This document shows, piece by piece, positions 28,095 through 28,227 of a DNA stretch of 64,000 nucleotides. The stretch covers positions 16,219 to 80,218 of the forward strand of contig CAJGCO010000005.1 of NCBI GenBank assembly GCA_904501925.1, written 5' to 3'. The notes below the pieces were generated by a model. That model ran no database searches and had not been told where the DNA came from. It saw nothing but the letters and a program-made list of their open reading frames with translations. The position numbers and the translations under genes are program-made. The first letter of the stretch is position 1, and every line of letters begins with the position of its first letter. The DNA comes from an uncultured Alphaproteobacteria bacterium. Lineage in GTDB: Bacteria; Pseudomonadota; Alphaproteobacteria; RF32; CAG-239.

Positions 28095-28227
28095 AACCTC
28101 TTACTTTCGCTTGCAGTCGAACCCGCTTTTGCGTGTTCGCTTCCCTTGATGATGTTTGAAAAAAAAAGTAGTGTTGGAAAATAAGATGATACTAAAACGG
28201 GGAGAGAAATGGAGCAGGCGACGGGAA
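28095..28227. repeat. Direct repeat A: ~100 bp of tRNA-Gly downstream flank plus the last 18 nt of tRNA-Gly (tggagcaggcgacgggaa, 28210-28227), an att-like remnant
   Basis: 28199-28227 is identical to 30467-30495, and 28105-28165 is ~90% identical to 30371-30430. Confidence 0.8.

Follow-up and report, generated by a model that had tools for sequence, protein, structure and literature searches.

Duplicated tRNA-Gly ends in a gut alphaproteobacterium probably mark a decayed integrative element

The 64,000-nt stretch of DNA analysed here (hereafter the window), from an uncultured Alphaproteobacteria bacterium, carries an exact 29-bp repeat, of which one copy includes the 3' end of a tRNA-Gly(CCC) gene and the other bounds a 2.27-kb segment downstream. 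As judged from sequence comparison, these 29-mers are considered, with a probability of about 0.8, to contain the att cores (attL and attR) of an integrative element that has since decayed. The element would have entered tRNA-Gly(CCC) by the tyrosine-integrase route and now forms a tandem array together with a second small unit, referred to as unit X. Decay of a tRNA-targeted island to a cis-mobilizable element (CIME) within a tandem array is a textbook principle. The present case shows the carriage and shuffling of putative toxin/immunity genes in uncultured low-GC gut Alphaproteobacteria known only from MAGs. From it, the att site is defined as 18-19 nt at the tRNA-Gly(CCC) 3' end, the cognate integrases as a family combining DUF6538 and Phage_integrase, with DUF6626, and candidate motifs are given for the arms. 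It also explains the breaks of metagenome assembly at this tRNA-Gly locus.

Duplication of the tRNA-Gly 3' end

The tRNA-Gly(CCC) gene was the sole tRNA detected by ARAGORN and Rfam in the 64-kb window. The 29-mer, GGGGAGAGAAATGGAGCAGGCGACGGGAA, was found in two exact copies, at 28199-28227 and 30467-30495, and a match of this kind was obtained in 0 of 100 dinucleotide-preserving shuffles. The tRNA gene, the repeat copies and their cores are as follows.

30478..30551, minus strand: tRNA-Gly(CCC), the proposed integration target (ARAGORN; Rfam tRNA model, 64 bits)
30467..30495, minus strand: right-hand 29-mer, consisting of the 18-nt core plus the 11-nt trailer TTTCTCTCCCC in the tRNA sense (exact match; core scan of all loci)
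30478-30495, minus strand: core copy B, the final 18 nt of tRNA-Gly and proposed attL core (exact match)
28199..28227, minus strand: left-hand 29-mer, the displaced tRNA 3' fragment (core A, 28210-28227, the proposed attR core) plus trailer (exact match; core scan)
30279..30307, minus strand: core copy C (degenerate, 30290-30307) plus trailer (30279-30289) (self-alignment; core scan; strain alignment)

The 18-nt core spans the 3' half of the T-loop, the T-stem, the acceptor strand and the CCA of tRNA-Gly. The displaced 29-mer is located 2,268 bp downstream of tRNA-Gly in the same orientation as the tRNA. Core C retains the first 16 nt and the final GGGAAT, with changes at acceptor-stem positions, and its equivalent in L002, L009 and L022 (L numbers designate related loci) is one base off the consensus core. 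For all the repeat copies, the identity stops directly after ...GGGAA, inside the T-loop. The core scan of the window, allowing up to four mismatches, gave no further core copies. On the other side of the 29-mer the homology is longer, the sequence 28099-28228 matching 30368-30496: a stretch of 67 nt is 93% identical, the middle has diverged with many indels, and the exact 29-mer follows. The initial annotation had pointed out the exact 29-bp duplication of the tRNA-Gly 3' end plus flank, a duplicated flank of ~130 bp and a degenerate third copy, and all three were recovered in these analyses.

The tRNA-Gly 3' strand itself was found to vary in one close relative, in which CTCCTGC replaces CGCCTGC (L001:1454-1471). 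This change would give a C-T mismatch at the acceptor pair 6:67, and could represent either an assembly error or a replacement of the 3' end by element sequence.

Organization of the repeat-bounded unit

Between cores B and A, the unit is organized in the following order from the tRNA side, all on the minus strand. The two protein-coding genes are herein designated T and I.

30260..30278, minus strand: terminator-like hairpin of the intrinsic type, directly after the trailer and part of the P' side (kept in 10 loci)
30090..30259, minus strand: P' arm, non-coding sequence conserved beyond the core (nhmmer, E 1e-62, the window being left out of the profile; alignment; motif scan)
29729..30089, minus strand: leader upstream of the putative toxin gene T (95% identical to L011; homologous to the leader of the Tlde1 cassette described below)
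29099..29728, minus strand: T, a 209-aa divergent lytic-transglycosylase/goose-lysozyme-like protein, putative cell-wall toxin (Pfam of relatives; AlphaFold2)
28583..29080, minus strand: I, a 165-aa hydrophobic protein, putative immunity protein (ORF; no Pfam match)
28519..28581, minus strand: DUF6626 remnant, the last ~20 codons with an internal stop, including hairpin H; deletion scar (tblastn)
28228..28518, minus strand: segP, the P arm (cross-locus alignment; nhmmer)

On the P' side, ten loci representing at least six MAG species share conserved sequence over ~200 nt downstream of the core, including the terminator. The motif GAYGTGTAG is present in two copies within the P' arm, at 30206-30214 and 30219-30227 (plus strand), so that the P' side carries the motif of segP (see below) twice in the opposite orientation (CCTACACGTCA). 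On the other side of the core, segP is ~290 nt of non-coding DNA ending in AACCCTTAAT. When the upstream sequences of displaced cores were aligned for five loci, the segP junction AAC(C/A)YTTAAT was found to abut the core, and an invariant 14-mer, TGACGTGTAGACGA, was located at 28304-28317, 77-90 nt from the core. In the most diverged locus, L021, conservation is limited to the last ~115 nt of segP, which includes this 14-mer. As these short motifs are kept on both sides of the core amid drifting non-coding DNA, they are candidate arm-type integrase binding sites, and their invariance within diverged sequence suggests continuing selection. Scans of IMG/VR and the JGI metagenomes gave 0 matches to the segP-core junction, while the looser core-plus-trailer pattern was detected in a single 1.3-kb JGI contig (L029).

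Loss of the integrase module

No integrase was detected in the window by tblastn with the integrase of L011. This locus (extended as L030) is a 59-kb metagenome contig, found by the lookup of contigs encoding identical T. Its integrase of 583 aa matches Pfam Phage_integrase and DUF6538, carries the R...HxxR...Y set, and is followed by a DUF6626 gene. The order in L011 is integrase, DUF6626, segP, one 18-nt core, terminator, P' arm, leader, T and I. The L011 segP is 94.7% identical to the window sequence from 28581 to 28228, and its terminator-to-I block is 93.9% identical to that from 30247 to 28576. In L011, both ends of the 2.27-kb segment of the window are thus contiguous across a single core, beside a tyrosine integrase. 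The 11-nt trailer of L011 differs from that of the window, and only 18-19 nt are shared with the tRNA. Within the 10-kb flanks of the L011 junction (L030) there is no tRNA, and this junction may be either attP or the junction between two tandem elements.

The trace of the lost module was identified between I and segP. The scar junction, CTAGAT followed directly by AACCTTTATGAAG, is shared without change by the window, L022 and L024. In L011 its two halves are found apart, one at the end of I and the other at the end of DUF6626, and 3-5 nt of microhomology are seen at the junction. The DUF6626 remnant and the lack of integrase together indicate that the window segment is, as read from its sequence, a deletion derivative that lost the integrase module and kept both ends, attL and attR.

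Close strains carry the integrase at the same site. In L001 and L002, the integrase and DUF6626 genes lie directly beyond the P' arm, in place of T and I. More distant homologues were also examined for their contexts. One of them, P0028 (55% identity), adjoins tRNA-Leu(TAA) at the edge of an island with restriction-modification and GmrSD genes, and no tRNA-Gly core was found in the contexts of either P0028 or P0012 (65% identity). The position of P0028 fits a habit of this family of targeting tRNAs, not the tRNA-Gly site specifically.

The integrase-DUF6626 module was found on opposite sides of the core and in opposite orientations depending on the locus (L001:1-1263, L002:1-1045, L019:7328-7470 and L020:973-1487 versus L011:2866-5436). 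In L001, L019 and L020 the module converges on the tRNA through the P' arm, and in L011 it lies upstream of segP. Inversion of an att segment of ~0.6 kb would interconvert these orientations; no evidence was found in these loci for this route. Integrase-bearing islands also carry defence cargo, consisting of type III restriction-modification (ResIII helicase, N6_N4 methylase) plus a resolvase at L030:1-3500, and of type I restriction-modification (HsdM, HsdS), GmrSD and a Y-family polymerase at L028:1-7000.

The origin of the window segment may be described as follows. The intact element would have consisted of the P arm (segP), a core of 18-19 nt identical to the tRNA 3' end, and the P' arm, with the leader, toxin and immunity genes beside the P' arm and the 583-aa DUF6538-type integrase plus DUF6626 at the other end. 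First, the tyrosine integrase would recombine the 18-19-nt core of the element with the identical tRNA-Gly 3' end, cutting presumably within the 18-nt core. Second, sequence from the element would restore the tRNA, and its former 3' end with the trailer would come to lie at the far end. Third, the interior, between I and the last ~20 codons of DUF6626, would be lost by deletion at the short microhomology. Fourth, further units would be added at the tRNA, giving a tandem array. The integrase-less remnant of 2.27 kb may still move with integrase supplied in trans.

Unit X and the extended flank

The GC-rich sequence next to the tRNA and its counterpart beside the left-hand repeat were defined as follows.

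30308..30466, minus strand: unit X, GC-rich and inserted between cores B and C (strain-variant alignment; nhmmer with the X profile, 30293-30427)
28096..28198, minus strand: X', a truncated second copy of unit X and the other half of the ~130-bp flank (alignments; nhmmer)

Unit X is ~160 nt in length, and its tRNA-proximal part, 30368-30466, is the duplicated flank. The spacer of X' is of the type that adjoins the tRNA in contig L006, and the spacer of copy A starts with GTTTTAGTATC. The 188 nt between cores C and B are missing from L001 and L003, and are present in L002, L006 and L009 with two spacer types among them; unit X is also missing from L021 and from the L011 junction. Judging from this distribution, unit X behaves as a second small core-bounded unit, placed both proximal and distal to the T-I unit. 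Unit X contains GCGGGTTCGA, corresponding to the 10 nt of the tRNA T-arm immediately 5' of the crossover point, and further copies of the unit were observed at L002:1255-1376, L022:5674-5795 and L024:1375-1500.

These observations bear on the proposal that the repeats arose simply by local segmental duplication of the tRNA 3' end and flank, through unequal crossing-over or replication slippage with no mobile element. Three copies lie close together, and homology reaching ~100 nt past the tRNA end (28099-28198 versus 30368-30466) is unexpected for simple att duplication. The extended homology is, however, accounted for by the core-bounded and variably present unit X: the match runs ~100 nt past the 29-mer because unit X flanks both sides. 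Local duplication also leaves unexplained the single-core junction beside the integrase of L011, the DUF6626 scar, the same segP-core junction in five loci, and the cargo identity of 97-99% between species whose L10 genes are 86% identical. We consider this proposal to be extremely improbable.

Unit X might instead be a gene product of its own. In the tyrT operon of E. coli, the tRNA-linked repeats (rtT RNA) are units of ~150-190 nt, each ending in the last ~19 nt of the tRNA and repeated just downstream of it. The layout of unit X is that of the tyrT repeat, and by analogy it could be a small RNA co-transcribed with tRNA-Gly and released through the duplicated tRNA 3' end as a processing signal, in which case RNA processing and not recombination would be what keeps the repeat. 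It is ~55% G+C (estimated from sequence) in a genome of ~31% G+C, and is located between the tRNA and the terminator in the orientation of the tRNA. A hairpin within the unit carries a compensatory two-pair change between variants (TTGGC...GCCAA versus TAAGCC...GGCTTA). On the other hand, by RNAalifold of five X copies this was the only covarying hairpin, and the covariation is one linked event among five sequences. The fold energy of the single sequence was no better than that of shuffles (z = -0.55), and no Rfam family was matched except tRNA, either in 27900-30900 at E <= 10 or in the whole window at the gathering thresholds. Unlike rtT, unit X has no Rfam match, varies between strains, being dispensable in L001, L003, L021 and the L011 junction, and is interleaved with integrase-type att structure; its distal copy beside segP would be left unexplained. 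A small-RNA role for unit X is thus very unlikely, and we hold to the core-bounded unit described above.

Variation between species and between close strains

Distribution of the site was examined by a core-plus-trailer scan with one genome per species. The scan detected six MAGs of human gut or buffalo colon origin, each of them labelled Alphaproteobacteria bacterium. In L021, L022 and L024, which belong to MAGs of other species, the layout is like that of the window, the tRNA being followed by segP, core and trailer. L022 contains three core copies arranged as in the window, all sharing a C-to-T variant seen only in that MAG, while L021 and L024 contain the tRNA and one displaced core preceded by segP. 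In both of the latter, the host flank leading to rnc follows the displaced core, directly or after an X unit. This shared rnc-side flank indicates that the displaced core marks the distal edge of the inserted DNA.

The level of identity between the window and L022 differs along the locus. It is 99.2% for T, 98.6% for I and 96.9% for segP, versus 86% for L10 and 72% for the spacer between the tRNA and L10; for the P' arm it is only 88%. The high-identity block common to both starts at the first base of the 29-mer. The scar joining I to DUF6626 is present in the two other species represented by L022 and L024, with cargo 95-99% identical to the window. The same scar, together with cargo identity above that of L10, indicates that the integrase-less derivative has apparently spread between species. 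In L022, T is truncated by other inserted genes.

Close relatives were taken as the contigs encoding an identical L7/L12 protein, with 95-99% nucleotide identity to the window. They differ exactly at the cores, and L001 and L002 have different occupants beside the tRNA. The first base of two others, L004 and L005, corresponds to window position 30468, which falls within the repeat and indicates an assembly break there. Among the retrieved contigs we found neither a strain lacking exactly 28228-30466 nor an excised circle or restored junction for the 2.27-kb unit. An empty tRNA-Gly site was likewise absent, every retrieved genome having the P' arm beside the tRNA. These negatives speak against the att interpretation, as do the lack of integrase in the window, the differing trailer of L011, the mosaic identity with L022 and the orientation of the integrase module in L001, L019 and L020.

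The repeats had initially been annotated as an att-like pattern of attL/attR type, and this proposal is supported by the single-core junction of L011, by the conserved arms and by the same layout in L021, L022 and L024. A lack of population-level variation had been named at the same time as grounds for refutation, but the junction does vary in close strains, the 188-nt unit being missing from L001 and L003, L001 and L002 having different occupants beside the tRNA, and L004 and L005 breaking inside the repeat. The further suggestion that cassettes are gained one at a time holds insofar as the cassette travels as the cargo of an att-bounded unit; the integrase would then have to act in trans. 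Capture of a bare leader-toxin-immunity cassette is not supported, given the DUF6626 scar, the separate core-bounded unit X and the lack of integrase in the window. The segment is, on present comparison, a decayed element in a tandem array and apparently not the product of integron-like capture.

How the cargo is exchanged at present may be another matter. The att sites could be an ancient scar, with cassettes now being swapped by homologous recombination through the P' arm and leader on one side and segP, core and X on the other, and with no current site-specific recombination. The mosaic identity between the window and L022 (88% for the P' arm versus 97-99% for T, I and segP) is no less compatible with homologous recombination than with transfer of a whole unit. 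L024 keeps I, segP and core, but has another gene pair upstream of I, and the truncation of T in L022 and the lack of integrase in the window point in the same direction. Some or all of the recent exchange may be due to homologous recombination between the conserved flanks. As a replacement for site-specific recombination altogether, however, homologous recombination does not readily explain why the block of identity with L022 opens with the 29-mer itself, at its first base, and not within a conserved flank, why the cognate integrase is present at the same tRNA in the close strains L001 and L002, and why the arm motifs are invariant where their surroundings have diverged. We regard a purely ancient scar as possible but rather unlikely, and retain the interpretation of the 29-mers as attL and attR cores of a decayed element inserted by tyrosine integrase.

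An extension of this interpretation is more speculative, and its correctness is doubtful at present. DUF6538-type integrases acting in trans might actively carry integrase-less units of ~2 kb from one species of gut Alphaproteobacteria to another, the tRNA-Gly locus then being an accretion platform for swapping cell-wall toxin/immunity cassettes. Such a system would be analogous in function to an integron but built on tRNA-type att sites, and expression of the cassettes would depend on the terminators and promoter of the P' arm and leader.

Putative toxin and immunity cargo

The T protein itself matched Pfam SLT below threshold (E 0.077), and an SLT match was obtained for 13 of the 17 members of the T family. 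A sequence search with T against PDB gave no match. Its AlphaFold2 model (pLDDT 84.8) gave MltE, MltC, MltF and goose-type lysozymes as the top PDB folds, albeit with modest scores (E 4e-3, TM ~0.47). The SLT relatives, the fold matches and the Tlde1 domain in the adjacent cassette are the basis for reading T as a peptidoglycan-directed toxin, and it is plausible that T and I form a pair of such a toxin and a membrane immunity protein. L024 keeps I as an orphan beside a different upstream gene pair. Orphan immunity genes beside other gene pairs are typical of toxin/immunity loci. From the gene order and this orphan retention in L024, I would be the neutralizer of T.

Two further sets of cargo sequences were identified on the distal side of the unit.

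24233..25814, minus strand: older cassette (Pfam; nhmmer; alignment)
27387..28081, plus strand: degraded copy, in inverted orientation, of the 3'-terminal 62 codons of T and the whole of I, designated T'I' (self-alignment, 84-88% identity)

The older cassette is composed of a partial P' arm (25752-25814; nhmmer E 8e-9), a leader, a Tlde1/YkuD-domain protein (24666-25556; Pfam Tlde1_dom E 6e-11) and a small membrane protein (24233-24610). By the core scan of the window, no core copy remains with this cassette. The genes for T and the Tlde1 protein have homologous leaders on the minus strand, each with two terminator-like hairpins plus T-runs just before the ribosome-binding site (29752-29829 and 25575-25650); the two hairpins of the T leader are located at 29802-29829 and 29752-29783. 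The hairpin stems differ between the T and Tlde1 cassettes with the pairing kept. This paired-hairpin leader could serve for attenuator or antitermination control of toxin expression.

The inverted T'I' copy, ~0.7 kb in length, abuts the truncated X' at 28099, beside the left-hand repeat. Its I frame is split into three ORFs (27591-27788, 27728-27928 and 27858-28091), which could reflect either a real pseudogene or frameshift errors in the MAG assembly. We considered an invertible toxin/immunity switch operating on this 0.7-kb inverted repeat and rejected it, the second copy being truncated and frame-broken with no recombinase nearby.

Comparison with known systems

The islands catalogued by Islander arise when the tDNA is split by a tyrosine integrase and made whole again by island sequence, and their far end is recognized from the displaced 3' fragment (PMC4383910). 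The commonest attP class there has its identity end in the T-loop/T-stem region (1836 of 3919 islands), and a 3' fragment is present in 3760 (PMC4383910). The window resembles these islands in its intact tRNA-Gly, in the displaced 3' fragment downstream in the same orientation, in the identity end within the T-loop/T-stem region, and in the cognate tyrosine integrase of related loci (L011, L001 and L002). It differs in that the interval is only 2.27 kb, that the identity runs 11 nt past CCA, and that the interval is without integrase, for which the Islander filter would reject it.

CIMEs and tandem accretion were described for ICESt1-type elements of Streptococcus thermophilus (reviewed in PMC5704250). 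Like a CIME, the window unit keeps attL and attR, with a conserved P' arm and segP, and has lost the integrase module with the deletion scar still visible. The host is different, an uncultured gut alphaproteobacterium, as are the target, tRNA-Gly(CCC), and the cargo, a putative cell-wall toxin/immunity pair. In its predicted organization the window unit matches the definition of a CIME.

A close analogue is found in the ssrA islands of Dehalococcoides, which are arranged in tandem downstream of one small-RNA gene, each being bounded by a direct repeat of ~20 bp of its 3' end (PMC3146451). Insertion was inferred to take place in the T-loop, and units without an integration module were proposed to be CIME-like (PMC3146451). 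Both systems have tandem repeat-bounded units, some of them without an integration module. The recombinase there is a serine recombinase beside attL, whereas it is a tyrosine recombinase here, and the cargo there is reductive dehalogenases.

An integron was also considered and rejected; neither IntI nor attI was found in the window, and the unit is bounded by tRNA 3' ends with asymmetric arms, not by attC hairpins.

Neighbourhood of the island

The island is located between holB (21329-22369) and tRNA-Gly, with the L10 and L7/L12 genes on the other side. Toward holB, a 69-nt direct repeat (86% identity; 22575-22643 and 25815-25883) brackets a 3.2-kb block, in which a Peptidase_C26/GATase gene (22615-23616) accompanies the Tlde1 cassette. 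A P' arm would be expected to begin at the position of the 25815-25883 copy, which resembles an AT-decayed form of that arm, and the 69-nt repeat may be the remnant of an older unit boundary. The adjacent ORF pair at 25916-27291, coding for a 226-aa membrane protein (plus strand) and a 204-aa Cys-rich protein (minus strand), has no Pfam matches. In other species the same pair recurs as a module at other positions of the island (L022:4283-5310 and L019:6777-7231), its insertion in L022 breaking up T near the 5' end.

Both the chromosomal flank (32509-33216) and the element (L011:546-1267) encode ankyrin-repeat proteins. Free-living bacteria do not usually have such proteins, which may point to a life in association with a host for these gut Alphaproteobacteria. 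Near the start of the window, a 114-nt sequence is directly repeated in tandem (92% identity, spacing 124) at 3560-3797, just after an ORF of 1177 aa (13-3546).
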